A DNA stretch of 64,000 nt from Gammaproteobacteria bacterium (GTDB lineage: Bacteria; Pseudomonadota; Gammaproteobacteria; G965277405), in assembly GCA_965277405.1 (NCBI GenBank), contig OZ255726.1, forward strand, positions 1 to 64,000, in the 5' to 3' direction. Each line of letters opens with the position of its first letter. The first letter of the stretch is position 1. The notes beneath the pieces were generated by a model, which saw only the letters and a list, made by a program, of their open reading frames with translations, was not told the DNA's origin and ran no database searches. Made by a program: the position numbers and the translations under genes. Shown piece after piece: positions 1 through 24,440 of this stretch.

Positions 1-3000
1 TTTGAGTAATATAAGTTTTAGTCTTTGTCTCAATTCTGTCATGGGAAATCAACTGCGAATAGCTCTTCGCCATCGCTAATGCTGCATCTACATTGACCAA
101 ACCAAAGCCATACCAATCGCTGTAATTAAGACCTGCCGCATTAGTAATCCAACCCCGACTAAATTGATAAGCGCCGCTACCTGGAATATCTGTAGTCACT
201 GTGTAGTCGGCATCAATTATCGTTGCTGTTTTCGCCAATATATACCGCACATCCCAAATAGTTAATGCTGGATGTTGCGAAAGTAACAACGCAACCGCGC
301 CACTGACAATTGCAGCCGCTGCGCGCGTACCGTGGAAAGTATTGGTGTAATTGCATGTTGGATCGTCATGGTGGAATTGGTTTGCTAAAACGTTACTTGC
401 TGCATTATCTGCTAACTCATGGTTACTATAACCCCTGCTACAGGAAGTTACATCTGTGGTGAACATTCCAGGTTCTCCAGCTAACATTCCAGGTTCTCCA
501 GCTGATGGACTACCTTGCTCGCCACCAAAACCACTCACCCAAATAGCCCCGGCTGCAGCATAGCTCGCGCGTTTCCCGAAGGCGTTGACTGCGCCAACAG
601 TGATGATCGGTAAGATGTCTTCCTTATCAAAACCAGCCAAGCCACAGCTCGTACCTATTACATTCGCTTGGCTGCATGCGTCACCATCACCAATATATGA
701 ATCGCCTGCAGGTTTAATAAAAATGACTCCTTTGCCGTTTCTGCCATCTTGAATCCTGCGCATGATTATTGCGTTGCTGCCAATTGCTGCGGTAGCTGGC
801 GTGCCGATGTGATCAAGGCGACTAGCTAGCTGGTCGCCTAAATACACAATATCGGCTTCAACTGCTGGGGAATCAGTGACACTGGGGTCGCCATCACCAA
901 CACTATATTGTAAATACGTGGCATTGCTATTGACACCAGCAGCCATATTGTTAAAGCCAAGCAATTTGGCTTTGGGTGCGACACCCAAGCCACCCATACC
1001 ATTATCTGCCATGGCAATCAAGCCAGCTATTGCTGTACCATGGTCGCCGTCACTACCCCTTGGGCTGGGATCGGTTGTTCCTGTCGCGGCATTAGGTTGC
1101 ATAAATGACCCTGTTGCAAAAGCATATCCTTGCCGAGGATCAATATTGTCAGCTAAATCAGGGTGGGTTATTTGCAAGCCAGTATCAACCACGCTCACCA
1201 ACGTTCCTTGACCGAGGCAGCCATCAGTGCGCCATGCACGTTGTAAGTTTAAATGGATGCTACTATCCATTTTGCTAGCATCCATGCCGGTGGCAATTTG
1301 ACCTTGTTGCCTACCATCTAAGTACCATTGATATTTTTCTAATGGATTGCTATCTGGTAACGATACAAGCGTGTCTGTATCACAATTTGAATTAACCGCT
1401 GTCATAAAAATAGTTGCTGTACTAACGGGGAAGTCCACCACATTAGATACATAACCCGAAACCACATATTCTGCTTTGCTTGCTACTATTGTTGGTGACC
1501 CTTGGATTGCACAGCTGTCGTTTGCCACAACTAGTGTCAAGCCAGCAGGTAGCGGCGGTGCTATGCTGCAACGAACAATTTCAACAGTGTTGACAAATTG
1601 CCATTGCTGCTGATTTTGGTATGTCAACATCGTCTGGGCAATTTTATCATCCATTTGCGGTAGCGCATAGATGGCGGTGATGAGGACGTCTGCACTGCTA
1701 TCACCAGCGGAATTTGACCCAGTAATAACGTAGTTGCTAGTTTGTGTTGCACTAACATTGTTGGGACTGCCATCAATTTGGCAGGTGCTGCGTCCATTGC
1801 CACCTACAGCTATATTCAGGGCTAAACCTGGCGGCAGCGGTGGTGTGGGGGTACAACTGGTCACATCACCACCATTGTTCTCAATTATTATGTGCTGAGG
1901 AATTCGATCACTGACTACAAACACCATTGCGGTATTGTTATATAATAATGCTGGTGCTTGATCATTGGCTGTTTGATCATTGGGTGTTTGATCATTGACA
2001 GTGATGCTATCGCGTAATGCTATAGACCTTCGCGACCTTGACCTTCGTTGCGGCTCTATTTGAGCACTTCGGGCACTCCGAGCACTGCGAGCACTCCGTT
2101 CAGGCTCTGAATCATATTGAGACTCTGAGACATAAGAATGACCGCGGAACGGATTCTCATATATACTGATGGGTATCGTTGCGTTGCTAAAGCCGCCAGA
2201 GTTGGTTCCAGTAATTATATATGTCTCTGTTGTATATCTTCCCATGCCTATGCCTAATATCTCGCAAGTATCATTCATTAGCCTAACTTCTAAACTTATT
2301 GGTAATGGAGTGCTTTCATCCGCCGAGCAGGATAGGACAGCACCACCGTTATTGATGAATGATGCAGTAGGGAATATTCCATATACCTGACCAGATTTAA
2401 CCGTTTCAAAACTAACCAAATCTGGTTTCTGATCATTCACAGTGATGATTATCGCTGCGCTGCTATCGCCGTCAGCGTTGCTTCCTTCAATGACATATGT
2501 CAGAGTTGAGTGTATCAACCTTGCTGTGCCTAATATCTGGCAAGTATTATTCCTTACCCTAACAGATAATCCAGCTGGTAATGGAGTGCTATTATCAATC
2601 CAGCATCTTGTTACAGCTCCGCCGTTATTGGTGAATGTAATAGGAGTTATGGCAATCCCTCTAGTCAAAACTTTATGGCGAGCATTAAGCAAAACTGGTG
2701 CATTATTATTCACAGTGATGTTTATTCCTGCGTTGCTATTGCCGCCGCTATTCGACGCAGTCACCGTGTAGGTGGTTGCCACTTGCAACTGCCTTGGTGT
2801 GCCAGCTAGCTGACACGTTGCTTTACCAGCTATGGCTCCAACAACAATATCCAAACCTGCAGGTAGCTGCGGTGAAATATCACAGCTTGTCACCGCACCG
2901 CCTGTATTGCCAAACAGCACGGGACTTGTTATCTGCATATTTGTTCTGAATATTTGGGGGTTTGGGCTTACTAACGCTGGGATATCATCAATCACCGTGA

Positions 3001-6000
3001 TGTTTATTGATGAAATGCTAGCGCCGACGGAATTGGACGCAGTCACCGTGTAGACGGTTGCAACTTGGCTCTGCGTTGCTGTGCCAGATAGCTGACACGT
3101 TGCTTTACCCGCTATGTCTCCAACAACAATATCCAAACCCAAAGGTAACTGCGGTGAAATATCACAGCTTGTCACCGTACCGCCTGTATTGCCAAACAGC
3201 ACGGGTAGTATCGTTGTGTTGATGGTAAATAGCTGTGGAGTTGGACTTACTAACGCTGGGATATTATCATTCACAGTGATGTTTATTCCTACGTTGTTTT
3301 CGCCGCCGCTATTAGAGGCAGTCACCGTATAGGCGGTTGCAACTTGCAACTGCCTTGCTGTGCCAGCTAGCTGACACGTTGCTTTACCCGCTATGTCTCC
3401 AACAACAATATCCAAACCTACAGGTAACTGCGGTGAAATATCACAGCTTGTCACCGCGCCGCCACTATTGCCAAACAGCACGGGTAGTATCGCTGTGTTG
3501 ATGGTGAATAGCTGTGGAGTTGGGCTTACTAACGCTGGGATAGCATCATTCACGGTGATGTTTATTCCTGTGTTGCTATTGCCGCCGCTATTAGCCGCAG
3601 TCACCGTGTAGGCGGTTGCAACTTGCAACTGCGTTGGTGTGCCAGCTAGCTGACACGTTGCTTTACCCGCGATGTCTCCAACAACAATATTCAAATCTAC
3701 AGGTAGCTGTGGTGAAACATCACAGCTTGTCACCGCGCCGCCACTATTGCCAAACAGCACGGGTAGTATCGCTGTGTTGATGGTGAATAGCTGTGGAGTT
3801 GGACTTGTTATCATTGGGATAGCATCGTTCAATACTTGGATATCATCGTTGACAGTGATGTTTATCTCTGCGCGGCTAGTGCCGACGCTATTGGACGCAG
3901 TCACCGTGTAGGTGGTTGCAACTTGGCTCTGCCTTGGTATGCCGGCAGATAGCTGACACGTTGCTGTACCCGCTATGTCTCCAACAACAATATCCAAACC
4001 TACAGGTAGCTGCGGTGAAATATCACAACTTGTTACAGCACCGCCTGTATTGCCAAACAGCACGGGTAGTATCGCTGTGTTTATAGTGAATATCTGTGGA
4101 GTTGGACTTGCTAACACTGGGATAGCATCAATCACCGCGATGTTTATTGATGAAATGCTAGCGCCGACGGAATTGACCGCAGTCACCGTGTAGCGTGTTG
4201 CAACTTGGCTCTGCGTTGCTGTGCCAGATAGCTGACACGTTGCTTTACCCGCTATGTCTCCAACAACAATATCCAAACCTACAGGTAGCTGCGGTGAAAT
4301 ATAACAGCTTGTTACCGCACCGCCTGTATTGCCAAACAGCACGGGTAGTATCGTTGTGTGTATGGTGAATATCTGTGGAGTTGGGCTTACTAACGCTGGG
4401 ATAGCATCAATCACGGTGATGATTATTCCTGCGTTGCTATCGCCGCCGCTATTAGCGGCATTCACCGTGTAGGCGGTTGCAACTTGCAACTGCGTTGGTG
4501 TGCCAGCTAGCTGACACGTTGCTTTACCAGCTATGTCTCCAACAACAATATCCAAACCTACAGGTAGCTGCGGTGAAACATCACAGCTTGTTACATTCCC
4601 ACCAGAATTGATAAAGTTCGCAGTTGGTATAGCTGTGTTGATGGTGAATGGCTGCAGGCTTGGACTCCCTATCTCTGGGATATTATCATTCACCATGATG
4701 TTTATTGATGAAATGCTATTGCCGCCGTTATTATACGCTGTCACTCTGTAGGCAGTTGCACCTTGCCTCTGCCTTGGTGTGCCAGATATCCGACACGTTG
4801 TATTACCAAAAACAGTTGCAACCGCGATTTGCAAATCAGGAGCTAGCCGTGGTGAAATAACACAGCGTGTTACTGCACCGCCTGTATTGCCAAAGTGCAC
4901 GGGTACTATCGTATTGTTTATGCTGAATACTAGTAGCCCAGTGTCTATGGTGGATATCCGTGGACTTTCTAACAATAGGGTATCATCAATAATCTCATTA
5001 AAGTTTATTGTAGCATTCATCACCGTGATGTTTATTGATGAAATGCTAGCGCCGACAGAATTGGACGCAGTCACCGTGTAGTCGGTTGCATTTTGTGGTA
5101 ACCGCGTTGGTGTGCCTGATAGCTGACACGTTGCTTTACCTGCTATGTCTCCAACTACAATATCCAAACCTACAGGTAGCTGCGGTGAAACATCACAGCT
5201 TGTCACCGCACCGCCTGTATTGCCAAACAGCACGGGTAGTATCGCTGTGTTGATGGTGAATATCTGTGGAGTTGGGCTTACTAACGCTGGGATAGCATCG
5301 TTGACAGTGATGTTTATCTCTGCGCGGCTAGTGCCGACGCTATTGGACGCAGTCACCGTGTAGGCGGTTGCAACTTGCAACTGCCTTGGTATGCCGGCAG
5401 CTAGCTGACACGTTGCTTTACCCGCTATGTCTCCAACTACAATATCCAAACCTACAGGTAGTTGCGGTGAAATATCACAGCTTGTCACCGCACCGCCTGT
5501 ATTGCCAAACAGCACGGGTAGTATCGCTGTGTGTATGGTGAATAGCTGTGGAGTTGGACTTGCTAACACTGGGATAGCTTCAATCACCGCGATGTTTATT
5601 GATGAAATGCTAGCGCCGACGGAATTGACCGCAGTCACCGTGTAGCGTGTTGCAACTTGGCTCTGCGTTGGTGTGCCAGCTAGCTGACACGTTGCTTTTC
5701 CCGCTATGTCTCCAACAACAATATCCAAACCTACAGGTAGCTGCGGTGAAACATCACAGCTTGTTACCGCGCCGCCTGTATTGCCAAACAGCACTGGTAG
5801 TATCGCTGTGTTGATAGTGAATATCTGTGGAGTTGGACTTGCTAACACTGGGATAGCATCAATCACCGCGATGTTTATTGATGAAATGCTAGCGCCGACG
5901 GAATTGACCGCAGTCACCGTGTAGCGTGTTGCAACTTGGCTCTGCGTTGCTGTGCCAGCTAGCTGACACGTTGCTTTACCCGCTATGTCTCCAACAACAA

Positions 6001-9000
6001 TATCCAAACCTACAGGTAACTGCGGTGAAATATAACAGCTTGTCACCGCCCCGCCTGTATTGCCAAAGAGCACGGGTAGTATCGTTGTGTGTATGGTGAA
6101 TAGCTGTGGAGTTGGGCTTGCTAACACTGGGATAGCATCGTTGACAGTGATGTTTATCTCTGCGCGGCTAGTGCCGACGCTATTGGACGCAGTCACCGTG
6201 TAGGCGGTTGCAACTTGCAACTGCCTTGGTATGCCGGCAGCTAGCTGACACGTTGCTGTACCCGCTATGTCTCCAACAACAATATCCAAACCTACAGGTA
6301 GCTGCGGTGAAATATCACAACTTGTTACAGCACCGCCTGTATTGCCAAACAGCACGGGTAGTATCGCTGTGTTGATAGTGAATAGCTGTGGAGTTGGACT
6401 TGCTAACACTGGGATAGCATCGTTGACAGTGATGTTTATCTCTGCGCGGCTAGTGCCGACGCTATTGGACGCAGTCACCGTGTAGGCGGTTGCAACTTGC
6501 AACTGCCTTGGTATGCCGGCAGATAGCTGACACGTTGCTGTACCCGCTATGTCTCCAACAACAATATCCAAACCTACAGGTAACTGCGGTGAAATATCAC
6601 AGCTTGTTACAGCACCGCCTGTATTGCCAAACAGCACGGGTAGTATCGCTGTGTTGATTGTGAATATCTGTGGAGTTGGACTTGCTAACACTGGGATAGC
6701 ATCGTTGACAGTGATGTTTATCTCTGCGCGGCTAGTGCCGACGCTATTGGACGCAGTCACCGTGTAGGCGGTTGCAACTTGCAACTGCCTTGGTATGCCG
6801 GCAGATAGCTGACACGTTGCTGTACCCGCTATGTCTCCAACAACAATATCCAAACCTACAGGTAACTGCGGTGAAATATCACAGCTTGTTACAGCACCGC
6901 CTGTATTGCCAAACAGCACGGGTAGTATCGCTGTGTTGATGGTGAATATCTGTGGAGTTGGGCTTACTAACGCTGGGATAGCATCGTTGACAGTGATGTT
7001 TATCTCTGCGCGGCTAGTGCCGACGCTATTGGACGCAGTCACCGTGTAGGCGGTTGCAACTTGCAACTGCCTTGGTATGCCGGCAGCTAGCTGACACGTT
7101 GCTGTACCCGCTATGTCTCCAACTACAATATCCAAACCTACAGGTAGCTGCGGTGAAACATCACAGCTTGTCACTGCCCCGCCTGTATTGCCAAACAGCA
7201 CGGGTAGTATCGCTGTGTGTATGGTGAATAGCTGTGGAGTTGGACTTGCTAACACTGGGATAGCATCGTTGACAGTGATGTTTATCTCTGCGCGGCTAGT
7301 GCCGACGCTATTGGACGCAGTCACCGTGTAGGCGGTTGCAACTTGCAACTGCCTTGGTATGCCGGCAGCTAGCTGACACGTTGCTTTACCCGCTATGTCT
7401 CCAACTACAATATCCAAACCTACAGGTAGCTGCGGTGAAACATCACAGCTTGTCACCGCACCGCCTGTATTGCCAAACAGCACGGGTAGTATCGCTGTGT
7501 GTATGGTGAATAGCTGTGGAGTTGGACTTGCTAACACTGGGATAGCAGCGTTCGCCACTTGGATATCATCATTCACGGTGATGTTTATCTCTGCGCGGCT
7601 TTCGCCGAGGCTATTGGACGCAGTCACCGTGTAGGTGGTTGCAACTTGCAACTGCGTTGGTGTACCTGATATTTGGCAACTAGATTCGTCTGGCGTTGGT
7701 TCAAATCTTAGCCCTTCAGGCCATACTGCGCGATTATTGCCCACTACCTCGCAGCTTGTTACAGCACCGCCAGTATTGTTAAAGCGCACGGGTCTTGGTA
7801 TCTGGATATTTTTTCTGAATGTTTGGGCAAGCTGGCTTGCTAAAACTGGGATGGCATCATACACAGTAATCCGTATCCCTGCGTGGCTATAGCCATCGCT
7901 ATTCGACGCAGTTACCGTATACACGATTGCAACTTTTAACTGCGTTGGTTTTCCTGATATCTGACACGTTGCTTTACCAGCTATGGCTCCAACAACAATA
8001 TCCAAACCTGCAGGTAGCCGTGGTGAAATTTCACAACTTGCCACCGCACCGCCAGTATTGCCAAACAACACAGGACTTGATATCTGGATATTTTTTCTGA
8101 ATGTTTGAGGGTTTGGGCTTACTAACGCTGGGATATCACCGATCAAAACTTGAATATCATCATTCACAGTGATGCTTATCGGTACGCGGTAGCTATCGCC
8201 GCGTTGATTGTACGCAGAGACAATATGCACGGATGTAACTTGCAACTGGGTTGGTGTGCCAGATATTTGGCAACTAGATTCGTCTGGCGTTGGCTCAAAG
8301 ATTAACCCTTCTGGCCATATTGCTCTATCAACTACACTGCATCTGGTTACAGCACCACCAGCGTTGCTCAAGCGCACTGGGGTTGTTATCCGTGTATATC
8401 TTTTAAATATTTGAGGGTTTGGGCTTATTAAATCTGGAGGGATATAATCCACAGTAATACTTATCCCTGCGCGGCTAACGCCGCCGCTATTGGATCCAGT
8501 CACCGTGTAGGTGGTTGCAATGTCTTGCCACTGCGTTGGTTTCCCAGATAGCTGACACGTTGCTTTCCCAGCTATAGCTCCAACAACAATATCCAAACCT
8601 GCAGGTAGCTGCGGTGAAACGTCACAGCTTGTCACCGCACCGCCTGTATTGCCAAACAGCACGGGACTTGTTATCTGCATATTTATTCTGAATGCTTGAG
8701 GGTTTGGACTTACTAACTCTGGGATATCATCGTTCAACACTGGAATATCATCGTTCAACACTGGGATAGCAGCAATCACCGCGATGTTTATTGATGAAAT
8801 GCTAGCGCCGCCGGAATTGGACGCAGTCACCGTGTAGGCGGTTGCCACTTGCAACTGCCTTGGTATGCCAGCTAGCTGACACGTTGCTTTACCCGCTATG
8901 TCTCCAACTACAATATCCAAACCTACAGGTAACTGCGGTGAAATATAACAGCTTGTCACCGCCCCGCCTGTATTGCCAAAGAGCACGGGTAGTATCGCTG

Positions 9001-10342
9001 TGCTGATAGTGAATATCTGTGGAGTTGGACTTGCTAACACTGGGATAGCATCGTTCAACACTTGGATATCATCGTTGACAGTGATGTTTATCTCTGCGCG
9101 GCTAGTACCGACGCTATTGGACGCAGACACCGTGTAGATGGATGCAGCTTGGCTCTGCCTTGGTATGCCAGATAGCTGACACGTTGCTTTACCAGCTATG
9201 TCGCCAACTACAATATCCAAACCTACAGGTAGCTGTGGTGAAACATCACAACTTGTCACGCCACCGCCAATGTTGTTAAAGAGCACGGGACTTGGTATCT
9301 GGATATTTTTGCTGAATATTTGGGGGCTTGGGCTTACTAAAACGGGGACATCATCGTTCAACACTTGGATATCATCATTGACAGTGATGTTTATCTCTGC
9401 GCGGCTAGTACCGTGGCTATTGGACGCAGTCACCGTGTAGGTGGTTGCAGCTTGGCTCTGCGTTGGTATGCCAGATAGCTGACACGTTGCTTTGCCCGCT
9501 ATGGCTCCAACAACCATATCCAAACCTACAGGTAGCTGTGGTGAAACATCACAGCTTGTCACGCCACCGCCAATGTTGTTAAAGAGCACTGGTGTTGGTA
9601 TCTGGATATTTTTTTTGAATGTTTGGGGGCTTGGGCTTACTAAAACGGGGATATCATCGTTCAACACTTGGATATCATCATTGACAGTGATGTTTATCTC
9701 TGCGCGGCTAACGCCGCCGCTATTGGACGCTGTCACCGTATACGTAGTTCTAGCTTGCAACTGCGTTGATGTTCCTATCATTAGACACGTTGTTGTATCA
9801 GATATGGTTGCAACAATAATATCTAAACCTGCAGGTAGCTGTGGTGAAATGTCACAGCGTGTCACGCCACCGCCAATGTTACTAAAGTTCACAGCCGGTA
9901 TTTTTTCGTCTTTTATGAAAATTTGCGCTGCAGGACTAAGAGGATTTGCTAGTTCTGTTGGTGTCCCAATTATTTGGATGTTGGGCTTTAACGGAACATT
10001 GATTCTGATCATTACATCGGCAGAAGAAACACCTAGAGAATTATAGGCAAGGACTGTAACTAGATCACCGCTGCTATCTGTAGTAGCATCAGGAGTTCCA
10101 AATATTTGGCATGTATCATTTGCTGCGCTTACTTGTAAATTAGCAGGCATATTTGCAGCAGTGCAAAATACAGCTGCACCACCAATATTAGCAATTTCTA
10201 AGGGGGGATCTATGGTAACGCCATTAGTAAATACAACTTCCGTGTTTGTTAATACAGGTTGTTCTATAACAAAATCTATTAAATCAACATCACTACAAGA
10301 TGTAAGTAGTAACAAAAAACTAACTGCTATGTGTTGCCACAT
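1..10342 (-). CDS. Giant lipoprotein A: ~28 (estimated) two-Cys Ig-like (He_PIG-like) repeats, polybasic linker, S8 kexin-like pseudo-peptidase; 3' end outside window
   Basis: Absent from the ORF track because it has no stop inside the window. ATG at 10342 reads MWQHIAVSFLLLLTSC (lipobox LTSC). All antisense shadow ORFs from 876 to 10161 share one frame, and the C-terminal HDRIETKTK at positions 43-17 is in frame with the start. S8 motifs VVDTG (1184-1186), HGT (1040-1042), KPAGD (701-703), HGTR (323-325). Confidence 0.9.
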   Translation of the reverse strand, partial: MWQHIAVSFLLLLTSCSDVDLIDFVIEQPVLTNTEVVFTNGVTIDPPLEIANIGGAAVFCTAANMPANLQVSAANDTCQIFGTPDATTDSSGDLVTVLAYNSLGVSSADVMIRINVPLKPNIQIIGTPTELANPLSPAAQIFIKDEKIPAVNFSNIGGGVTRCDISPQLPAGLDIIVATISDTTTCLMIGTSTQLQARTTYTVTASNSGGVSRAEINITVNDDIQVLNDDIPVLVSPSPQTFKKNIQIPTPVLFNNIGGGVTSCDVSPQLPVGLDMVVGAIAGKATCQLSGIPTQSQAATTYTVTASNSHGTSRAEINITVNDDIQVLNDDVPVLVSPSPQIFSKNIQIPSPVLFNNIGGGVTSCDVSPQLPVGLDIVVGDIAGKATCQLSGIPRQSQAASIYTVSASNSVGTSRAEINITVNDDIQVLNDAIPVLASPTPQIFTISTAILPVLFGNTGGAVTSCYISPQLPVGLDIVVGDIAGKATCQLAGIPRQLQVATAYTVTASNSGGASISSINIAVIAAIPVLNDDIPVLNDDIPELVSPNPQAFRINMQITSPVLFGNTGGAVTSCDVSPQLPAGLDIVVGAIAGKATCQLSGKPTQWQDIATTYTVTGSNSGGVSRAGISITVDYIPPDLISPNPQIFKRYTRITTPVRLSNAGGAVTRCSVVDRAIWPEGLIFEPTPDESSCQISGTPTQLQVTSVHIVSAYNQRGDSYRVPISITVNDDIQVLIGDIPALVSPNPQTFRKNIQISSPVLFGNTGGAVASCEISPRLPAGLDIVVGAIAGKATCQISGKPTQLKVAIVYTVTASNSDGYSHAGIRITVYDAIPVLASQLAQTFRKNIQIPRPVRFNNTGGAVTSCEVVGNNRAVWPEGLRFEPTPDESSCQISGTPTQLQVATTYTVTASNSLGESRAEINITVNDDIQVANAAIPVLASPTPQLFTIHTAILPVLFGNTGGAVTSCDVSPQLPVGLDIVVGDIAGKATCQLAAGIPRQLQVATAYTVTASNSVGTSRAEINITVNDAIPVLASPTPQLFTIHTAILPVLFGNTGGAVTSCDVSPQLPVGLDIVVGDIAGTATCQLAAGIPRQLQVATAYTVTASNSVGTSRAEINITVNDAIPALVSPTPQIFTINTAILPVLFGNTGGAVTSCDISPQLPVGLDIVVGDIAGTATCQLSAGIPRQLQVATAYTVTASNSVGTSRAEINITVNDAIPVLASPTPQIFTINTAILPVLFGNTGGAVTSCDISPQLPVGLDIVVGDIAGTATCQLSAGIPRQLQVATAYTVTASNSVGTSRAEINITVNDAIPVLASPTPQLFTINTAILPVLFGNTGGAVTSCDISPQLPVGLDIVVGDIAGTATCQLAAGIPRQLQVATAYTVTASNSVGTSRAEINITVNDAIPVLASPTPQLFTIHTTILPVLFGNTGGAVTSCYISPQLPVGLDIVVGDIAGKATCQLAGTATQSQVATRYTVTAVNSVGASISSINIAVIDAIPVLASPTPQIFTINTAILPVLFGNTGGAVTSCDVSPQLPVGLDIVVGDIAGKATCQLAGTPTQSQVATRYTVTAVNSVGASISSINIAVIEAIPVLASPTPQLFTIHTAILPVLFGNTGGAVTSCDISPQLPVGLDIVVGDIAGKATCQLAAGIPRQLQVATAYTVTASNSVGTSRAEINITVNDAIPALVSPTPQIFTINTAILPVLFGNTGGAVTSCDVSPQLPVGLDIVVGDIAGKATCQLSGTPTRLPQNATDYTVTASNSVGASISSINITVMNATINFNEIIDDTLLLESPRISTIDTGLLVFSINNTIVPVHFGNTGGAVTRCVISPRLAPDLQIAVATVFGNTTCRISGTPRQRQGATAYRVTAYNNGGNSISSINIMVNDNIPEIGSPSLQPFTINTAIPTANFINSGGNVTSCDVSPQLPVGLDIVVGDIAGKATCQLAGTPTQLQVATAYTVNAANSGGDSNAGIIITVIDAIPALVSPTPQIFTIHTTILPVLFGNTGGAVTSCYISPQLPVGLDIVVGDIAGKATCQLSGTATQSQVATRYTVTAVNSVGASISSINIAVIDAIPVLASPTPQIFTINTAILPVLFGNTGGAVTSCDISPQLPVGLDIVVGDIAGTATCQLSAGIPRQSQVATTYTVTASNSVGTSRAEINITVNDDIQVLNDAIPMITSPTPQLFTINTAILPVLFGNSGGAVTSCDVSPQLPVDLNIVVGDIAGKATCQLAGTPTQLQVATAYTVTAANSGGNSNTGINITVNDAIPALVSPTPQLFTINTAILPVLFGNSGGAVTSCDISPQLPVGLDIVVGDIAGKATCQLAGTARQLQVATAYTVTASNSGGENNVGINITVNDNIPALVSPTPQLFTINTTILPVLFGNTGGTVTSCDISPQLPLGLDIVVGDIAGKATCQLSGTATQSQVATVYTVTASNSVGASISSINITVIDDIPALVSPNPQIFRTNMQITSPVLFGNTGGAVTSCDISPQLPAGLDIVVGAIAGKATCQLAGTPRQLQVATTYTVTASNSGGNSNAGINITVNNNAPVLLNARHKVLTRGIAITPITFTNNGGAVTRCWIDNSTPLPAGLSVRVRNNTCQILGTARLIHSTLTYVIEGSNADGDSSAAIIITVNDQKPDLVSFETVKSGQVYGIFPTASFINNGGAVLSCSADESTPLPISLEVRLMNDTCEILGIGMGRYTTETYIITGTNSGGFSNATIPISIYENPFRGHSYVSESQYDSEPERSARSARSARSAQIEPQRRSRSRRSIALRDSITVNDQTPNDQTANDQAPALLYNNTAMVFVVSDRIPQHIIIENNGGDVTSCTPTPPLPPGLALNIAVGGNGRSTCQIDGSPNNVSATQTSNYVITGSNSAGDSSADVLITAIYALPQMDDKIAQTMLTYQNQQQWQFVNTVEIVRCSIAPPLPAGLTLVVANDSCAIQGSPTIVASKAEYVVSGYVSNVVDFPVSTATIFMTAVNSNCDTDTLVSLPDSNPLEKYQWYLDGRQQGQIATGMDASKMDSSIHLNLQRAWRTDGCLGQGTLVSVVDTGLQITHPDLADNIDPRQGYAFATGSFMQPNAATGTTDPSPRGSDGDHGTAIAGLIAMADNGMGGLGVAPKAKLLGFNNMAAGVNSNATYLQYSVGDGDPSVTDSPAVEADIVYLGDQLASRLDHIGTPATAAIGSNAIIMRRIQDGRNGKGVIFIKPAGDSYIGDGDACSQANVIGTSCGLAGFDKEDILPIITVGAVNAFGKRASYAAAGAIWVSGFGGEQGSPSAGEPGMLAGEPGMFTTDVTSCSRGYSNHELADNAASNVLANQFHHDDPTCNYTNTFHGTRAAAAIVSGAVALLLSQHPALTIWDVRYILAKTATIIDADYTVTTDIPGSGAYQFSRGWITNAAGLNYSDWYGFGLVNVDAALAMAKSYSQLISHDRIETKTKTYITQ
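2170..10250 (-). repeat. Intragenic tandem array of ~279-282-bp repeats (Ig-like units) of gene A
   Basis: Recurring unit PVLFGNTGGAVTSCDISPQLPVGLDIVVGDIAGKATCQL...YTVTASNS; shadow ORFs recur at ~280-bp spacing. Confidence 0.9.
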
Positions 10343-13700: not shown

Positions 13701-16700
13701 TGTCACAGCACCGCCTATATTGCCAAAGCGCACGGGTAGTATCGCTGTGTTTATGGTGAATACTAGTGACCCTGTGTTTATGGTGAATATCCGTGGACTT
13801 GCTAACACTGGGATCTCATCAATCACCTCGATGTTTATTGATGAAATGCTAGTGCCGCCACTATTAGACGCAGTCACCGTGTAGACGGTTGCAACTCGGC
13901 TCTGCGTTGGCGTTCCTGTTATCTGACAAGTTGCTTTACCATAAAAAGTGCCAAGAACAATATCTAAACCAAAAGGTAGCTGCGGTGCAATATCACAGCT
14001 TGTTACCGCACCGCCTAAATTGCCAATGTGCACGGGTCGTATCGCTGTGTTTACGGTGAATCGTATTAACCCTGTGTTCTGGGTGTATATCTGCGGGATA
14101 TTATCATTCACCGTGATGCTGATATCTGCGCTGCTAGTGCCGCCGCTATTCGTCGCGGTGATGGTATACGTTATCGGTTCTTCTTGCAGTACGGTTGGAG
14201 TGCCTGTTAGCTGACAAGTTGCTGGATCTGCTATGGTGGCAAGCTGCAAGTCACTAGGTAGCGGTGCTGAAACGCCACAGCTTGTCACCGCACCGCCTGT
14301 GTTGCCAAAATCAACAGCTGCTATCGCTGTGTTGATGGTGTATATCCGCGGGCTGGGGGTTGCTAGCGCTGGGATATTATCGTTCACCGTGATGCTGATA
14401 TCTGCGCTGCTAGTGCCGCCGCTATTCGTCGCTGTTATTGTATACGTTATCGGTTCTTCTTGCAGTACGGTTGGAGTGCCTGTTAGCTGACAAGTTGCTG
14501 GATCTGCTATGGTGGCAAGCTGCAAACCACCAACTAGCGGCGGTACAACGCCACAGCTGGTTACCGCACCGCCTGCGTTGCCAAAATCAACAGCTGCTAT
14601 CGGCGTGTTGATGGTGTATATCCGCGGGCTGGGGGTTGCTAGCGCTGGGATATTATCGTTCACCGTGATGCTGATATCGGCGCTGCTAGTGCCGCCGCTA
14701 TTCGTCGCGGTGATGGTATACGTTATCGGTTCTTCTTGCAGTACGGTTGGAGTGCCTGTTAGCTGACAAGTTGCTGGATCTGCTATGGTGGCAAGCTGCA
14801 AGTCACTAGGTAGCGGTGCTGAAACGCCACAGCTTGTTACCGCACCGCCTGCGTTGCCAAAATCAACAGCTGCTATCGGTGTGTTGATGGTGTATATCCG
14901 CGGGCTTGGATTTACTAGCGCTGGGATATTATCGTTCACCGTGATGCTGATATCTGCGCTGCTAGTGCCGCCGCTATTCGACGCTGTGATTGTATACGTT
15001 GCCTCTTCTTCATGCAGTGCGGTTGGGGTTCCTGTTATTTGGCAACTAGCTCCGTCTGGCGTTTTCTTAAGTGTTAAACCATCAGGCCATGCTGCGCTAT
15101 TATCCCCGACTACTTCGCAACTTGTCACCGCACCGCCTGTGTTGCCAAAATCAACAGCTGCTATCGGCGTGTTGATGGTGTATATCCGCGGGCTTGGATT
15201 TACTAGCGCTGGGATATTATCGTTCACCGTGATGCTGATATCTGCGCTGCTAGTGCCGCCGCTATTCGTCGCGGTGATTGTATACGTTATCGGTTCTTCT
15301 TGCAGTCGGTTGGAGTGCCTGTTTCTGACAAGTTGCTGGATCTGCTATGGTGGCAAGCTGCAAACCACCTAGGTAGCTGCTAAACATCACAGCTTGTTAC
15401 CGCACCGCCTGTTGCCAAAATCAACAGCTGCTACATAGTTGCTGGATCTGCTAGCTGCGCTGGTGGCAAGCTGCAAACCACTGTTAGCTGGCAACTAGCG
15501 GGCGCTTAAGTGTTAAACATCACAGCTTGTTACCGCACCGCCTGCACCACCTGTGTTGCCAAAATCAACAGCTGCTATCGGTGTGTTGATGGTGTATATC
15601 CGCGGGCTTGGGGTTGCTAGCGCTGGGATATTATCGTTCACCGTGATGCTGATATCTGCGCTGCTAGTGCCGCCGCTATTCGTCGCGGTGATGGTATACG
15701 TTATCGGTTCTTCTTGCAGTACGGTTGGAGTGCCTGTTAGCTGACAAGTTGCTGGATCTGCTACGGTGGCAAGCTGCAAGTCACTAGGTAGCGGTGCTGA
15801 AACGCCACAGCTTGTTACCGCACCGCCTGCGTTGCCAAAATCAACAGCTGCTATCGGCGTGTTGATGGTGTATATCCGCGGGCTGGGGGTTGCTAGCGCT
15901 GGGATATTATCATTCACCGTGATGCTGATATCGGCGCTGCTAGTGCCGCCGCTATTCGTCGCGGTGATGGTATACGTTATCGGTTCTTCTTGCAGTACGG
16001 TTGGAGTGCCTGTTAGCTGACAAGTTGCTGGATCTGCTATGGTGGCAAGCTGCAAGTCACTAGGTAGCGGTGCTGAAACGCCACAGCTTGTCACCGCACC
16101 GCCTGTGTTGCCAAAATCAACAGCTGCTATCGCTGTGTTGATGGTGTATATCCGCGGGCTGGGGGTTGCTAGCGCTGGGATATTATCGTTCACCGTGATG
16201 CTGATATCTGCGCTGCTAGTGCCGCCGCTATTCGTCGCTGTTATTGTATACGTTATCGGTTCTTCTTGCAGTACGGTTGGAGTGCCTGTTAGCTGACAAG
16301 TTGCTGGATCTGCTATGGTGGCAAGCTGCAAACCACCAACTAGCGGCGGTACAACGCCACAGCTGGTTACCGCACCGCCTGCGTTGCCAAAATCAACAGC
16401 TGCTATCGGCGTGTTGATGGTGTATATCCGCGGGCTGGGGGTTGCTAGCGCTGGGATATTATCGTTCACCGTGATGCTGATATCGGCGCTGCTAGTGCCG
16501 CCGCTATTCGTCGCGGTGATGGTATACGTTATCGGTTCTTCTTGCAGTACGGTTGGAGTGCCTGTTAGCTGACAAGTTGCTGGATCTGCTATGGTGGCAA
16601 GCTGCAAGTCACTAGGTAGCGGTGCTGAAACGCCACAGCTTGTTACCGCACCGCCTGCGTTGCCAAAATCAACAGCTGCTATCGGTGTGTTGATGGTGTA

Positions 16701-19700
16701 TATCCGCGGGCTTGGATTTACTAGCGCTGGGATATTATCGTTCACCGTGATGCTGATATCTGCGCTGCTAGTGCCGCCGCTATTCGACGCTGTGATTGTA
16801 TACGTTGCCTCTTCTTCATGCAGTGCGGTTGGGGTTCCTGTTATTTGGCAACTAGCTCCGTCTGGCGTTTTCTTAAGTGTTAAACCATCAGGCCATGCTG
16901 CGCTATTATCCCCGACTACTTCGCAACTTGTCACCGCACCGCCTGTGTTGCCAAAATCAACAGCTGCTATCGGCGTGTTGATGGTGTATATCCGCGGGCT
17001 TGGATTTACTAGCGCTGGGATATTATCGTTCACCGTGATGCTGATATCTGCGCTGCTAGTGCCGCCGCTATTCGTCGCGGTGATTGTATACGTTATCGGT
17101 TCTTCTTGCAGTACGGTTGGAGTGCCTGTTAGCTGACAAGTTGCTGGATCTGCTATGGTGGCAAGCTGCAAACCACTAGGTAGCGGTGTTGAAACATCAC
17201 AGCTGGTTACCGCTCCGCCTGTGTTGCCAAAATCAACAGCTGCTATCGGCGTGTTGATGGTGTATATCCGCGGGCTTGGGGTTGCTAGCGCTGGGATATT
17301 ATCGTTCACCGTGATGCTGATATCTGCGCTGCTATCGCCGCCGCTATTCGTCGCGGTGATGGTATACGTTATCGGTTCTTCTTGCAGGGTGGTTGGTATT
17401 CCTGTTAGCTGACAAGTTGCTGGATCTGCTATGGTGGCAAGCTGCAAACCACCAACTAGCGGCGGTACAACGCCACAGCTGGTTACCGCTCCGCCTGTGT
17501 TGCCAAAATTAACAGCTGCTATCGCTGTGTCTATTGTGTAATGCTGCGGACTGGGACTTACTAACGCTGGGATATTATCATTCACCGTGATGCTGATATC
17601 TGCGCTGCTAGTGCCGCCGCTATTCGACGCGGTGATTGTATACGTTGCCTCTTCTTCATGCAGTGCGGTTGGCGTACCTGTTAGCTGGCAACTAGCTCCG
17701 TCTGGCGTTTTCTTAAGTGTTAAACCATCAGGCCATGCTGCGCTATTATCCCCGCCTACTTCGCAGCTTGTTACCGCACCGCCTGTGTTGCCAAAATCAA
17801 CAGCTGCTATCGCTGTGTCTATTGTGTAATGCTGCGGACTGGGACTTACTAACGCTGGGATATTATCATTCACCGTGATGCTGATATCTGCGCTGCTAGT
17901 GCCGCCGCTATTCGTCGCGGTGATGGTATACGTTATAGCGTCTTCTTGCAGGGTGGTTGGCGTACCTGTTAGCTGGCAACTAGCTCCGTCTGGCGTTTTC
18001 TTAAGTGTTAAACCATCAGGCCATGCTGCGCTATTATCCCCGCCTACTTCGCAGCTTGTTACCGCACCGCCTGTGTTGCCAAAATCAACAGCTGCTATCG
18101 GCGTGTTGATGGTGTATATCCGCGGGCTTGGGGTTGCTAGCTCTGGGATATTATCGTTCACCGTGATGCTGATATCTGCGCTGATAGTGCCGCCGCTATT
18201 CGACGCTGTTATTGTATACGTTGCCTCTTCTTCATGCAGTGCGGTTGGGGTTCCTGTTATCTGGCAACTAGCTCCGTCTAGCGTTTTTTTAAGTGTTAAA
18301 CCATCAGGCCATGCTGCGCTATTATCCCCGCCTACTTCGCAGCTTGTCACCGCACCACCTGTGTTGCTAAAGTTCACAGTTGGTATCGCTGTGTCTATTG
18401 TGTAATGCTGCGGACTGGGACTTACTAACTCTGGGATATTATCGTTCACCGTGATGCTGATATCTGCGCTGCTAGTGCCGCCGCTATTCGTCGCTGTTAT
18501 TGTATACGTTATCGCGTCTTCTTGCAGTGCCGTTGGCATACCTGTTAGCTGACAAGTTGCTGGATCTGCTATGGTGGCAAGCTGCAAACCACCAACTAGC
18601 GGCGGTACAACGCCACAGCTGGTTACCGCACCGCCTGCGTTGCCAAAATCAACAGCTGCTATCGCTGTGTTGATGGTGTATATCCGCGGGCTTGGATTTA
18701 CTAGCTCTGGGATATTATCGTTCACCGTGATGTTGATATCTGCGCTGCTATCGCCGCCGCTATTCGTCGCGGTGATGGTATACGTTATAGCGTCTTCTTG
18801 CAGGGTGGTTGGTATTCCTGTTAGCTGACAAGTTGCTGGATCTGCTATGGTGGCAAGATGCAAACCACCAACTAGCGGCGGTACAACGCCACAGCTTGTT
18901 ACCGCACCGCCTGTGTTGCCAAAATCAACAGCTGCTATCGGCGTGTTGATGGTGTATATCCGCGGGCTGGGGGTTGCTAGCGCTGGGATATTATCGTTCA
19001 CCGTGATGTTGATATCTGCGCTACTAGTGCCGCCGCTATTCGTCGCGGTGATGGTATACGTTAGAGCGTCTTCTTGCAGTGTGGTTGGTATTCCTGTTAG
19101 CTGACAAGTTGCTGGATCTGCTATGGTGGCAAGCTGCAAACCACTAGGTAGCGGTGTTGAAACATCACAGCTGGTTACCGCTCCGCCTGTGTTGCCAAAA
19201 TCAACAGCTGCTATCGGCGTGTTGATGGTGTATATCCGCGGGCTTGGGGTTGCTAGCTCTGGGATATTATCGTTCACCGTGATGCTGATAGCTGCGCTGC
19301 TAGTGCCGCCGCTATTCGTCGCGGTGATGGTATACGTTATAGCGTCTTCTTGCAGTGCGGTTGGGGTTCCTGTTATCTGGCAGCTAGCTCCGGCTGTCGT
19401 TTTCTTAAGTGTTAAACCATCAGGCCATGCTGCGCTATTATCCCCGCCTACTTCGCAGCTTGTCACCGCACCACCTGTGTTGCCAAAATCAACAGCTGCT
19501 ATCGCTGTGTCTATTGTGTAATGCTGCGGACTGGGACTTACTAACGCTGGGATATTATCGTTCACCGTGATGCTGATATCTGCGCTGCTAGTGCCGCCGC
19601 TATTCGTCGCGGTGATGGTATACGTTATCGGTTCTTCTTGCAGTACGGTTGGAGTGCCTGTTAGCTGACAAGTTGCTGGATCTGCTACGGTGGCAAGCTG

Positions 19701-22700
19701 CAAGTCACTAGGTAGCGGTGCTGAAACGCCACAGCTTGTTACCGCACCGCCTGCGTTGCCAAAATCAACAGCTGCTATCGGCGTGTTGATGGTGTATATC
19801 CGCGGGCTGGGGGTTGCTAGCGCTGGGATATTATCATTCACCGTGATGCTGATATCGGCGCTGCTAGTGCCGCCGCTATTCGTCGCGGTGATGGTATACG
19901 TTATCGGTTCTTCTTGCAGTACGGTTGGAGTGCCTGTTAGCTGACAAGTTGCTGGATCTGCTATGGTGGCAAGCTGCAAGTCACTAGGTAGCGGTGCTGA
20001 AACGCCACAGCTTGTCACCGCACCGCCTGTGTTGCCAAAATCAACAGCTGCTATCGCTGTGTTGATGGTGTATATCCGCGGGCTGGGGGTTGCTAGCGCT
20101 GGGATATTATCGTTCACCGTGATGCTGATATCTGCGCTGCTAGTGCCGCCGCTATTCGTCGCTGTTATTGTATACGTTATCGGTTCTTCTTGCAGTACGG
20201 TTGGAGTGCCTGTTAGCTGACAAGTTGCTGGATCTGCTATGGTGGCAAGCTGCAAACCACCAACTAGCTGTGGCGCAACATCACAGCTGGTTACCGCACC
20301 GCCTGCGTTGCCAAAATCAACAGCTGCTATCGGCGTGTTGATGGTGTATATCCGCGGGCTGGGGGTTGCTAGCGCTGGGATATTATCGTTCACCGTGATG
20401 CTGATATCGGCGCTGCTAGTGCCGCCGCTATTCGACGCTGTGATTGTATACGTTATCGGTTCTTCTTGCAGTACGGTTGGAGTGCCTGTTAGCTGACAAG
20501 TTGCTGGATCTGCTATGGTGGCAAGCTGCAAGTCACTAGGTAGCGGTGCTGAAACGCCACAGCTTGTTACCGCACCGCCTGCGTTGCCAAAATCAACAGC
20601 TGCTATCGGTGTGTTGATGGTGTATATCCGCGGGCTTGGATTTACTAGCGCTGGGATATTATCGTTCACCGTGATGCTGATATCTGCGCTGCTAGTGCCG
20701 CCGCTATTCGACGCTGTGATTGTATACGTTGCCTCTTCTTCATGCAGTGCGGTTGGGGTTCCTGTTATTTGGCAACTAGCTCCGTCTGGCGTTTTCTTAA
20801 GTGTTAAACCATCAGGCCATGCTGCGCTATTATCCCCGACTACTTCGCAACTTGTCACCGCACCGCCTGTGTTGCCAAAATCAACAGCTGCTATCGGCGT
20901 GTTGATGGTGTATATCCGCGGGCTTGGATTTACTAGCGCTGGGATATTATCGTTCACCGTGATGCTGATATCTGCGCTGCTAGTGCCGCCGCTATTCGTC
21001 GCGGTGATTGTATACGTTATCGGTTCTTCTTGCAGTACGGTTGGAGTGCCTGTTAGCTGACAAGTTGCTGGATCTGCTATGGTGGCAAGCTGCAAGTCAC
21101 TAGGTAGCGGTGTTGAAACATCACAGCTGGTTACCGCTCCGCCTGTGTTGCCAAAATCAACAGCTGCTATCGGCGTGTTGATGGTGTATATCCGCGGGCT
21201 TGGGGTTGCTAGCGCTGGGATATTATCGTTCACCGTGATGCTGATATCTGCGCTGCTATCGCCGCCGCTATTCGTCGCGGTGATGGTATACGTTATCGGT
21301 TCTTCTTGCAGGGTGGTTGGTATTCCTGTTAGCTGACAAGTTGCTGGATCTGCTATGGTGGCAAGCTGCAAACCACCAACTAGCGGCGGTACAACGCCAC
21401 AGCTGGTTACCGCTCCGCCTGTGTTGCCAAAATTAACAGCTGCTATCGCTGTGTCTATTGTGTAATGCTGCGGACTGGGACTTACTAACGCTGGGATATT
21501 ATCATTCACCGTGATGCTGATATCTGCGCTGCTAGTGCCGCCGCTATTCGACGCGGTGATTGTATACGTTGCCTCTTCTTCATGCAGTGCGGTTGGCGTA
21601 CCTGTTAGCTGGCAACTAGCTCCGTCTGGCGTTTTCTTAAGTGTTAAACCATCAGGCCATGCTGCGCTATTATCCCCGCCTACTTCGCAGCTTGTTACCG
21701 CACCGCCTGTGTTGCCAAAATCAACAGCTGCTATCGGCGTGTTGATGGTGTATATCCGCGGGCTTGGGGTTGCTAGCGCTGGGATATTATCGTTCACCGT
21801 GATGCTGATATCTGCGCTGCTAGTGCCGCCGCTATTCGTCGCGGTGATGGTATACGTTGCCTCTTCTTCATGCAGTGCGGTTGGGGTTCCTGTTATTTGG
21901 CAACTAGCTCCGTCTGGCGTTTTCTTAAGTGTTAAACCATCAGGCCATGCTGCGCTATTATCCCCGCCTACTTCGCAGCTTGTCACCGCACCGCCTGTGT
22001 TGCTAAAGTTCACAGTTGGTATCGCTGTGTCTATTGTGTAATGCTGCGGACTGGGACTTACTAACGCTGGGATATTATCATTCACCGTGATGCTGATATC
22101 GGCGCTGCTAGTGCCGCCGCTATTCGTCGCTGTTATTGTATACGTTGTCGGGTCTTCTTGCAGTGCCGTTGGAGTTCCTGTTAGCTGACAAGTTGCTGGA
22201 TCTGCTATGGTGGCAAGCTGCAAACCACCAGCTAGCTGTGGTGAAATATTACAACTTGTCACCGCACCGCCTGTGTTGCTAAAGTTCACAGTTGGTATCG
22301 CTGTGTCTATTGTGTAATGCTGCGGACTGGGACTTACTAGCGCTGGGATATTATCATTCACAGTGATGCTTATTCCTGCTCTGCTATCGCCGCCGCTATT
22401 GGACGCAGCCACAGTGTAAGCGGTTGCGACTTGCAACTGCGTTGGTGTACCTGTTATTTGACAACTAGCTCCGTCTGTCGTTGGCTCAACGCTTAAGCCC
22501 TCAGGCCATGCTGCACTATTATCCCCCACTACCGCGCAGCTTGTCACCGTACCCTCTATATTACCAAAGATTACTGGTGTTGTTATATCTGAGTTTATGG
22601 TGAATAACTGCGGGTTTGGACTTACTAACGCTGGGATATCATCATTCACCGTGATGCTTATCGCTGTGTTGCTAGTGCCGCCGTTATTGGACCCAGTCAC

Positions 22701-24440
22701 CGTATAGGTGGTTGCAACTTGCTTCTGCGTTGGAATCCCTATTATCTGACAAGTTGCTTTACCAAAAATAGTCCCAACAACAATATCTAAACCAAAAGGC
22801 AGCTGCGGTGCAATATCACAACTTGTCACGCCACCGCCAATGTTGCTAAAATTCACAGTTGGTATCATCGTGTTGATGGTGAATGGCTGCAGGCTTGGAC
22901 TTGCTAACGCTGGGATATTATCATTCACCGTGATGCGTATCGCTGCGCTGCTAGTGCCGCCGCTATTGGACGCTGTTATTGTATACGTTATCCCATCTTC
23001 TTGCAGTGCGGTTGGAGTTCCTATTATCTGACAAGTTGCTGTACCTGCTATGGTGGCAACTGCAAGCTGTAAACCACTGGCTAGCTGTGGTGCAACATTA
23101 CAACTTGTCACGCCACCGCCTGTGTTGCCAAAATCAACAGTTGGTATCACTGTGTTGATGGTGAATGACTGCGGGCTTGGACTGGCTAACGCTGGGATAT
23201 TATCATTCACCGTGATGCTTATCGCTGCGCTGCTAGCACCACCGCTATTCGTCGCTGTGATGGTATACGTTATCGCGTCTGCTTGCAGTACGGTTGGAGT
23301 TCCTGTTATCTGACAAGTTGCTGGATCTGCTATGGTGGCAAGCTGCAAACCACCAACTAGCGGCGGTACAACGCCACAGCTTGTTACCGCACCGCCTGCA
23401 TTGCCAAAATTAACAGCTGCTATCGCTGTGTTGATGGTGTATATCCGCGGGCTTGGGCTGGCCAACTCTGGGATATTATCATTCACCGTGATGCTTATCG
23501 CTGCGCTGCTAGCACCGCCGCTATTCGTCGCTGTTATTGTATACGTTATCGCGTCTTCTTGCAGGGCGGTTGGCGTTCCTGTTATCTGACACGTTGCTGT
23601 ACCTGCTATGGTTGCAACTGCAAGCTGCAAATCACCAGCTAGCTGTGGTGAAACGTCACAACTTGTCACGCCACCGCCAATATTGCTAAAGTTCACAGTT
23701 GGTATTATGACACCTTTTATAAAAACTTGCGCAACAGGACTAATAAGATTTGCTAGCTCTGTTGGAGTAATAATAAGGTCGCTTGGTGATTTATCCTGCT
23801 GCAATTCTTCTGAATGTATTGTTTGTATAACAGTCGCAGTATTAGAGCCTGTAGCATTTGTCGCAGTTATTGTATAGTTCTTGGCAATTAGTTGTTCTAC
23901 AGTTGGTGTCCCAATTATTTGGCATGAATTGCCGTCATCTGTAACTGCTATCTCAAGCCCGCTTGGCATATCTGGGCTGACGTCACAGCCTGTTAAAAAT
24001 ACTCCTCCATCGTTATCAAATACGGCATTCTGTATAGGTAAATCCACCTTAAATACTTGCTCTGGTAAATATTGGAGGTTGGGCTTTAACGGAACATTGA
24101 TTCTGATCGTTACATCGGCAAAAGAAACACCTAGAGAATTATACGCAACGATTGTAACTATTTGACCACTGCTATCTGTTGTGGCATCAGGAGTTCCTGA
24201 TATTTGGCATGTATCATTTGCAGCGCTTACTTGTAAATTAGCAGGCATATTTGCAGCAGTGCAAAATACAGCTGCACCACCAATATTAGCTATAACTAAG
24301 GAGTTATCAATGGTAATCCCCTTTGTATATACAACTTCCGTGTTTGCTAATGCAGGTTTTTCTGCAACAGAATTTATTGAATCATCATCACCACAAGATG
24401 TAAGTAGTAACAAAAAACAAACTGCTATGTGTTTCCACAT
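10716..24440 (-). CDS. Giant lipoprotein B: ~39 (estimated) two-Cys Ig-like repeats, polybasic linker, S8 kexin-like pseudo-peptidase and C-terminal P-domain; interrupted at ~15300-15545
   Basis: ORFs 15513..24440 (MWKHIAVCFLLLLTSC lipobox) and 10716..15227 are in the same frame and carry the same repeats, separated by scrambled repeat fragments. The C-terminus has the proprotein-convertase P-domain pattern DIEISLTSPAGT...FLGESIQGHWRITVKD. Confidence 0.85.
13230..24350 (-). repeat. Intragenic tandem array of 276/288-bp repeats with higher-order block duplications in gene B
   Basis: Unit NDNIPALATPSPRIYTINTPIAAVDFGNTGGAVTSC...ATCQLTGTPT...YTITATNSGGTSSADISITV; matching shadow ORFs recur at offsets of 1806 and 3924 nt. 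Confidence 0.9.

Follow-up and report, generated by a model that had tools for sequence, protein, structure and literature searches.

Giant proteins with a lipobox, an immunoglobulin-like stalk and an inactivated kexin-like subtilase head in a small gammaproteobacterial genome: candidate lipid-anchored surface fibrils

What do the very long open reading frames (ORFs) at the start of contig OZ255726.1, from a member of the Gammaproteobacteria, encode? We analysed a window made up of bases 1-64000 of this single contig of 2,174,577 bp. A first-pass annotation, made from the letters of the window, had proposed a pair of giant lipid-anchored stalks built of immunoglobulin (Ig)-like repeats and tipped with a kexin-like pseudoprotease, and had seen in them a candidate undescribed host-interaction system. 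Our analysis points instead to a family of four giant genes, here called A, B, C and D. Their sequences suggest that the products are lipid-anchored surface binding fibrils with a catalytically dead head, a reading to which we give an even chance of being right. As for host interaction, nothing in the data points to a host.

Three very long ORFs are found in the window, all on the minus strand, at 2..10342, 10716..15227 and 15513..24440. The first is gene A (3447 codons), which starts with an ATG at 10342 and runs off base 1 of the contig. The other two make up gene B, with a 5' ORF (15513..24440, 2975 aa, ending in TAA) that carries the lipobox-type N-terminus MWKHIAVCFLLLLTSC and about 31 two-Cys units, and a 3' ORF (10716..15227, 1503 aa) that carries about seven stalk units, a linker, two degenerate units, an S8 (subtilase) domain and a P-domain; they are divided by 285 nt with stops (15228..15512, minus strand). 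The two giant paralogs are indeed in tandem on one strand, but the single ORF of about 4500 aa attributed to B is actually one of 2975 and one of 1503 aa. The three families named in advance for a profile check were all matched in a Pfam scan: He_PIG in the three giant ORFs, Peptidase_S8 in two of them (A and the B 3' ORF), and P_proprotein only in the second of these. A and B follow a common order of lipoprotein-type signal, He_PIG stalk, Arg-rich linker, two degenerate units and Peptidase_S8. Nor are they merely a pair. Gene C (genome 596925-625625) encodes 9566 aa without interruption and its head is 99-100% identical to that of B, and gene D (genome 137509-148891) falls into two frames, of 1111 and 2700 aa, that overlap; its head is 79% identical. 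A further relative, a 678-aa lipoprotein (genome ~1801406-1803442) with lipobox ITAC, is 47% identical and has the active-site motifs VVDNG, HGT, AAGN and GTSAATP intact; we refer to it as the active paralog. Together A, B, C and D occupy about 62 kb, or about 3% of the 2.17-Mb genome.

The Peptidase_S8 domain lies at 143..1213 in A (minus strand, residues 3044-3400, E 1.4e-24) and at 11244..12314 in B (minus strand, PF00082, E 5.6e-25). In B it is directly followed by the P-domain (P_proprotein, PF01483; 10806..11030, minus strand, residues 1400-1474, E 5.4e-09), which is modelled with a predicted local distance difference test score (pLDDT) of mostly 73-98. A has a partial copy across the contig junction, and of the two genes only B shows the P-domain whole, as had been noticed from the letters. 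The top solved relative of the B head is ASP of Aeromonas sobria (3hjr/3wqb, E 6.2e-50), ahead of furin and Kex2. An AlphaFold2 (AF2) model of the B head is confident across S8 and P-domain, and its best Foldseek match is again 3hjr (E 3.8e-44), followed by furin and Kex2. The triad of ASP is D78/H115/S336 (PMC5638518). The four giant heads all read VVDTG, DHGT, PAGD and GTRAAAA, so that the Asp and His of the catalytic triad are kept, the Ser is replaced by Arg (GTRAAAA versus GTSSATP in ASP) and the Asn of the oxyanion hole is replaced by Asp (PAGD versus AAGN in ASP and in the active paralog). The head of A therefore reads Asp-His-Asp-Arg (D-H-D-R), and in B the Arg codon CGC stands at 11424-11426 and the Asp codon at 11802-11804, both on the minus strand. 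The proposal of a non-catalytic head thus extends to all four genes: judged from these residues, the heads cannot be canonical serine proteases.

A, B and C encode the Arg by CGC, D by CGA, and the active paralog has the Ser codon TCG at this place, which argues that the change from Ser to Arg is old and not a one-base sequencing slip. A homolog search returned 11,528 cluster representatives out of 1.84 billion, and we scored the best 150 of them at the four active-site positions. The state was D-H-N-S in 141, D-H-D-R in 2, and other or partly unaligned in 7. Both D-H-D-R representatives (P0001 and P0002) belong to the giant family and come from another assembly, where they lie on contigs of 387 kb and 574 kb; they are 94.8% and 98.3% identical to C and D, and neither has an exact coding match in this genome. 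As they derive from a closely related second assembly, they confirm the D-H-D-R state. One might speculate that the head is still a protease that employs a non-canonical nucleophile, given that the triad Asp and His are kept in all heads. With Arg at the nucleophile and Asp at the oxyanion Asn in every head, against D-H-N-S in nearly all of the best representatives, and with no alternative Ser at the nucleophile position of the alignment, we regard this as most improbable.

He_PIG (PF05345) was matched at E-values of 7.8e-77 in A (11 stretches), 5.1e-141 in the B 5' ORF (26 stretches) and 9.4e-39 in the B 3' ORF (7 stretches). Tandem Repeats Finder reports arrays with a period of 276-303 nt at 2708-9887, 14095-15433 and 15544-23678. 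The first of these is the A stalk (2708..9887, minus strand), with a period of 279-303 nt and about 25 units of 92-101 aa having two Cys each; the program lists 8.9 copies at 93% matches in A, and 25 A units satisfy a strict length filter. A typical unit measures 92-96 aa, with a Cys pair of median spacing 21-25 residues, and we counted 31 Cys pairs in A and 31+10 in B. AF2, run on 51 aligned unit pairs of the window, yields a model of two consecutive units that has a pLDDT of 94.6 and consists of two beta-sandwiches, the closest fold matches of which are titin and cadherin tandems. The tens of two-Cys Ig-like repeats described at first reading thus hold, and each stalk domain is probably stapled by one disulfide. 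Over the whole family 170 units fall within the length filter, 154 of them distinct. Cys36 and Cys59 are invariant, in a conserved framework that reads FGNTGGAVTSC ... ATCQLTGTP ... YTITATNSGG, and the variation clusters before the first Cys, between both Cys and after the second. Paralog by paralog, the number of units is about 30, 40 or more, 90 and 32. The B stalk also contains higher-order repeats of 1.3-2.9 kb with 95-99% identity.

Arg is scarce in the stalks, at 0.7-1.0% for C and the B 5' ORF, and between stalk and head stands an Arg-rich linker (…RSARSARIEPQRRSRSRRS…), which had been picked out in both genes of the window. It spans residues 2742-2784 of A (1991..2119, minus strand) and residues 670-715 of the B 3' ORF (13083..13220, minus strand), and is also present in C. 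The motif R-x-K/R-R occurs exactly once in each of these three proteins, always as RSRR inside the linker; the sole site of A lies at 2027-2038, and that of B, the only one across both B ORFs, at 13128-13139. In B, two degenerate two-Cys units (12423..13025, minus strand; AF2 pLDDT 40-58) separate linker and head. These post-linker units can be told as two further Ig-like units only by their 35-53% identity to the stalk units and the motif pattern common to both; submitted alone to Pfam they gave no match.

The single RSRR site makes it conceivable that the head is shed. SphB1, a lipidated subtilase on the bacterial surface, reportedly releases the giant adhesin FHA by cutting it. By analogy with SphB1 and FHA, the active paralog may cleave the giants at the linker (compare PMC2193847). 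SphB1 and NalP, lipidated subtilase autotransporters, end in a C-terminal barrel, whereas no such domain appears in the Pfam scans of A or B. ASP was assayed with a dibasic substrate (PMC5638518). A complex prediction combining the B head (562 aa) with a 60-aa linker peptide scored 0.00 and, being without controls, counts neither way.

The lipobox is defined as [LVI][ASTVI][GAS]C preceded by a hydrophobic segment close to the N-terminus, and we called it by eye against this consensus and with a regular expression of our own. A (MWQHIAVSFLLLLTSC) and B (MWKHIAVCFLLLLTSC) both begin with a signal of 15 residues that ends in the lipobox LTSC with Cys16 (10295..10342, minus strand, in A). The pattern postulated for the two genes of the window recurs in C (LTSC, Cys16), in D (TSC) and in the active paralog (ITAC). 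A basic residue is present in the n-region of B, C and D (K3); A has Q3, and His4 is the sole candidate. A block of about 270 nt upstream of the start is conserved across all four giants, the diverged D included, and is found at 10343..10617 for A and at 24441..24715 for B (minus strand). The earlier suggestion that each gene has its own promoter block is therefore borne out as regards conservation, but not as regards promoters: the one sigma-70-like match in the A block (TTGACT-18-TAATAT at 10570-10541) is not above shuffle expectation, promoter scans of the upstream blocks, and terminator scans, gave matches no higher than in shuffles, and an Rfam scan of the A and B blocks found no family.

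Where do such proteins come from? The segment SNC…NPLEKYQW before S8 is common to the active paralog and the giant heads, so that the giants look as if a stalk had been placed between the anchor of the 678-aa protease and its enzyme part. The most likely ancestor would be a lipid-anchored, stalked, active protease, of which the active paralog in the genome would be a survivor. The 3' end of this paralog is overlapped by 14 nt by a 228-aa exported ORF (genome ~1800733-1801419), in the position that the chaperone gene orf2 has relative to ASP; its best match in the PDB reaches only E 0.064, and it matches no Pfam family.

The same general layout is not peculiar to this genome. In a domain survey of 17 proteins, homologs with fn3, cadherin, Big_2, CARDB or He_PIG stalks before an active S8 plus P-domain were frequent. 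By our crude regular expression, a lipobox-like N-terminus occurs in 68 of the 150 best representatives and in 19 of the 46 that are at least 1000 aa long, including proteins of 3486 and 2360 aa. The stalked homologs P0133 (3486 aa), P0083 (2360 aa) and P0166 (2293 aa) resemble the giants in combining a lipobox-like N-terminus, a run of beta-sandwiches and a C-terminal ASP-like S8 plus P-domain. They differ in that they are shorter, at most 35-44% identical, and keep the catalytic Ser, and the two-Cys array and the Arg-rich linker were seen in none of those examined. ASP itself also has the subtilase followed by the P-domain, with no N-terminal propeptide, as in the giants, but it is a secreted active enzyme of about 600 aa (PMC5638518), whereas the giants are lipoproteins of 3400-9500 aa, by their lipoboxes, with Ser replaced by Arg and Asn by Asp. 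The system can thus not be called undescribed in its outline, since a lipobox, a long beta-sandwich stalk and an ASP-like S8 plus P-domain are common among Ser-intact homologs. Judged by sequence comparison, stalked lipoprotein proteases follow a widespread layout, of which the giants represent an inactivated and extreme form confined to one lineage; their size, dead site, two-Cys unit and Arg-rich linker set them apart. This layout, common in metagenomes, is apparently unstudied in the literature searched and may be the larger blind spot; in open-access literature we found no description of an architecture with He_PIG stalk and subtilase. A search for the head in genomes of the same class gave 0 of 60 at E <= 1e-20, which has little bearing on near kin as all 60 come from other families. 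Searches with the head against genome and metagenome contigs yielded 81 and 104 pattern matches, respectively, none confirmed.

Two more tandem giant ORFs, of 4573 and 9040 codons, are encoded elsewhere on the plus strand (genome 1533625-1547346 and 1547347-1574469). They have lipobox-like N-termini (…LVAGC and …LSAC) and no RTX motifs; this genome seems to favour giant lipoproteins. For a genome so small, the four genes of about 62 kb are a sizeable outlay, and adding these two other giant lipoproteins brings the figure to about 103 kb.

How far can the gene lengths be trusted? Among the four genes only C is uninterrupted. Compared with an intact paralogous unit, the break in B consists of a 9-nt insertion, a scrambled partial duplication of ~130 nt and three 1-nt indels, and it sits at the margin of a 1.3-kb higher-order repeat, of which 15901-17245 and 19825-21169 are copies with 98-99% identity. 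The frame of D is disrupted by a 7-nt insertion at genome 140.8 kb. For A, the last 84 P-domain residues are found at the opposite contig end (88% identical); at the junction, 24 unique nt replace ~130 nt that are missing, and a stop ends the joined frame after 21 codons. These 24 nt, bases 1-24 of the contig, have no second copy in the genome and no counterpart at the equivalent place of the paralogous heads; they may be a circularisation or trimming artefact. It could accordingly be argued that the arrays were mis-joined or mis-sized, and that the gene lengths, the break in B and the tandem order of A and B are not real. The contig starts and ends inside the A head, which is 99-100% identical to the B and C heads over ~2 kb, its first 24 nt are unlike any paralog, and the B break lies at the border of higher-order repeats of 95-99% identity, all of which would fit such an explanation. 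The second assembly, however, has proteins 95-98% identical with the same stalk units and D-H-D-R heads on its 387-kb and 574-kb contigs, and A, B, C and D differ in their unique flanks and stalks, only the tip of B matching C (>=97%, >=800 nt). Assembly error on this scale is therefore decidedly unlikely. We also considered B as a truncated copy of C and rejected it, as only a 2.7-kb tip matches at >=97% over >=800 nt. The reservation that the genes might be chimeras, voiced at the outset, applies to gene lengths, which are open to doubt with lesions inside the repeats in three of four genes, but not to the family, which the second assembly confirms. The clustering of lesions within repeats suggests consensus artefacts, and the real numbers of units are uncertain.

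The same lesions may be given a biological meaning. The giants could be decaying relics, stalked lipoprotein proteases that lost their activity and are eroding in a small genome rich in insertion sequences, with a head that has acquired no new function. Lesions affect B, D and the end of A; the orthologous ORFs of the second assembly are just 1370 and 2520 aa long and start within the repeats; the genome measures 2.17 Mb, with an IS5-type transposase in the window. The ratio of nonsynonymous to synonymous substitution rates (dN/dS) between the B and D heads is 0.84 overall, with 0.79 for S8, 1.19 for the P-domain and 0.77 for the part before S8, that is 0.8-1.2 in a mosaic comparison that includes near-identical tracts. 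Against erosion, C is open over 28.7 kb, and A, the B 5' ORF and the D 3' ORF are open for 2700-3447 codons. Both active-site substitutions are fixed in four paralogs, with an Arg codon that differs synonymously, and the upstream block is kept even in D. The lesions, moreover, all lie within repeats, and that of B, with five indel events per 285 nt and clean sequence around it, is more artefact-like. Decay is in our view unlikely, though it has to be taken seriously as an alternative, and so do problems of assembly.

If the giants are made and displayed, by which route would they be exported? The genome possesses Lgt (PF01790, E 2.4e-73), LspA (PF01252, E 5.6e-41), LolB (PF03550, E 8.5e-13) and a DsbA-family gene, which makes the originally suggested Sec export and disulfide formation, together with lipoprotein sorting, possible. 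It also has a gspD-E-F-G-H cluster, a PilQ-type secretin and, at 0.35 and 1.37-1.38 Mb, three genes for Slam (PF04575); because of the gsp cluster and the Slam genes, routes known for surface lipoproteins exist in this genome. None of these export genes borders A, B, C or D. The Slam genes form part of three near-identical cassettes (genome 1364974-1372050, 1373944-1380681 and 348299-355379), each with an exported protein of ~1105 aa having a signal-like N-terminus, an exported protein of ~280 aa, the 504-aa Slam and proteins of ~300-430 aa. Among the 26 ORFs neighbouring A and B, a Pfam scan detected no secretion-system family and no type I secretion system, in agreement with the earlier remark that the window contains no dedicated secretion genes. 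A, B, C and D contain no GGxGxD motif, and Pfam scans of A and B found no autotransporter family, B ending in its P-domain.

Some lipoproteins, pullulanase for example, are substrates of type II secretion. This raises the alternative that the lipobox serves for export only, and that the protein is then delivered by the type II system to an extracellular matrix or biofilm. The gspD-E-F-G-H cluster is compatible with such a released protein, and the head could come free at the furin-type site. Cys16 and the first Ig-like unit, however, are joined by a short tether, and cleavage at RSRR would free the head only, not the stalk; for the rest, the sequence offers nothing to separate a released from an anchored protein. 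We hold release into a matrix to be quite improbable.

The anchored surface fibril that we favour could work as follows, every step from lipidation and surface exposure to disulfide formation, binding and cleavage being predicted from sequence. The signal peptide and lipobox would direct the giant into Sec, Cys16 would be lipidated, and the Lol pathway would deliver the protein to the outer membrane. From this N-terminal lipid anchor a rod of 30 to ~90 Ig-like He_PIG domains would extend outward, forming a fibre of up to roughly a third of a micrometre by our estimate (~90 domains x ~4 nm), with the ASP/kexin-like subtilase domain and the P-domain as its distal head. As both Ser and the oxyanion Asn are replaced, by Arg and Asp, we propose that the head acts by binding and not by cutting. 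In A, B and C it might be released at RSRR by the active paralog or by a foreign kexin-like protease. In its most specific form, this scheme would have a lipid-anchored "periscope" of a diderm, exported by Sec and Lol without a type I or type V system, with a pseudoenzyme, converted from the cell's own kexin-like lipoprotein protease, as receptor-binding head and the active paralog as sheddase at RSRR, so that enzyme and pseudoenzyme would be partners in adhesion and release. Surface fibres of this class would be new to diderms, but we consider the combination rather unlikely.

Several observations weigh against the fibril reading. No explanation offers itself for the passage of a rod with as many as ~90 disulfide-bonded, folded domains through the outer membrane. 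No translocator gene adjoins any of the four loci, and the Slam genes are confined to their own three-copy cassettes, none beside A, B, C or D, although they might act in trans. The n-region of the A signal lacks the usual basic residue, with neither Lys nor Arg. This assembly shows interruptions in every gene but C (in B, in D, and in A at the contig junction), and the high dN/dS between the B and D heads is compatible with relaxed constraint as well as with diversifying selection of a head exposed at the surface. Finally, D has neither the Arg-rich linker nor an R-x-K/R-R site, so that shedding cannot serve as a family-wide mechanism; the shedding put forward in the first-pass annotation, with one such site each in A, B and C, is therefore suggested only for these three.

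How would fibrils of this kind compare with known surface proteins? LigA and LigB of Leptospira, and intimin and invasin, also combine an N-terminal membrane anchor, an Ig-like rod and a distal C-terminal binding part, the Lig proteins being lipoproteins and intimin and invasin being anchored by a beta-barrel. They are built of Big_2 or Big_1 domains, in 12-13 units, without a subtilase head, whereas the giants use 30-90 He_PIG units and carry such a head. LapA and SiiE lack a Sec signal and have C-terminal RTX and type I secretion signals. The giants share with them their size and tandem Ig-like repeats, but have an N-terminal lipobox and zero GGxGxD motifs. In the periscope proteins SasG, Aap and Pls, near-identical tandem DNA repeats likewise encode a rod that projects a functional head away from the cell (PMC9999234), and the number of repeats varies. 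Here the number ranges from 30 to ~90 units among paralogs, the second assembly yielding only partial ORFs. Periscope proteins are Gram-positive, with a C-terminal wall anchor and an N-terminal head, whereas the giants belong to a diderm and would have an N-terminal lipid and a C-terminal head. For the head, a parallel is offered by CspC and CspA of Clostridioides difficile, subtilase pseudoproteases that have lost catalytic residues and act as non-enzymatic sensors or regulators beside an active paralog (PMC6636752, PMC7200643); these proteins of Firmicute spores are small and soluble, fall outside the kexin-like group, and lack P-domain, stalk and lipid anchor. If made and displayed, the giants would be Gram-negative rods of tens of disulfide-bonded domains on an N-terminal lipid anchor, which no known export route obviously explains, and would be a kexin-like addition to the short list of bacterial pseudoproteases.

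Elsewhere in the window, a glycine riboswitch aptamer (43688-43777, minus strand, 48.4 bits) lies upstream of a gcvT-gcvH-gcvP operon and is ordinary. An IS5-type DDE transposase is encoded at 54103-55050 (plus strand), near a repressor-like gene with helix-turn-helix and Peptidase_S24 domains (57143-57832, minus strand), in a stretch of lower GC content (0.41). Two overlapping ABC ATPase ORFs occupy 61404-63064 (plus strand), the second of which opens with oligo_HPY, a segment usually located at the end of the first type of protein. The pair may be one frameshifted gene for an oligopeptide-transporter ATPase, be the shift genuine or an assembly indel.

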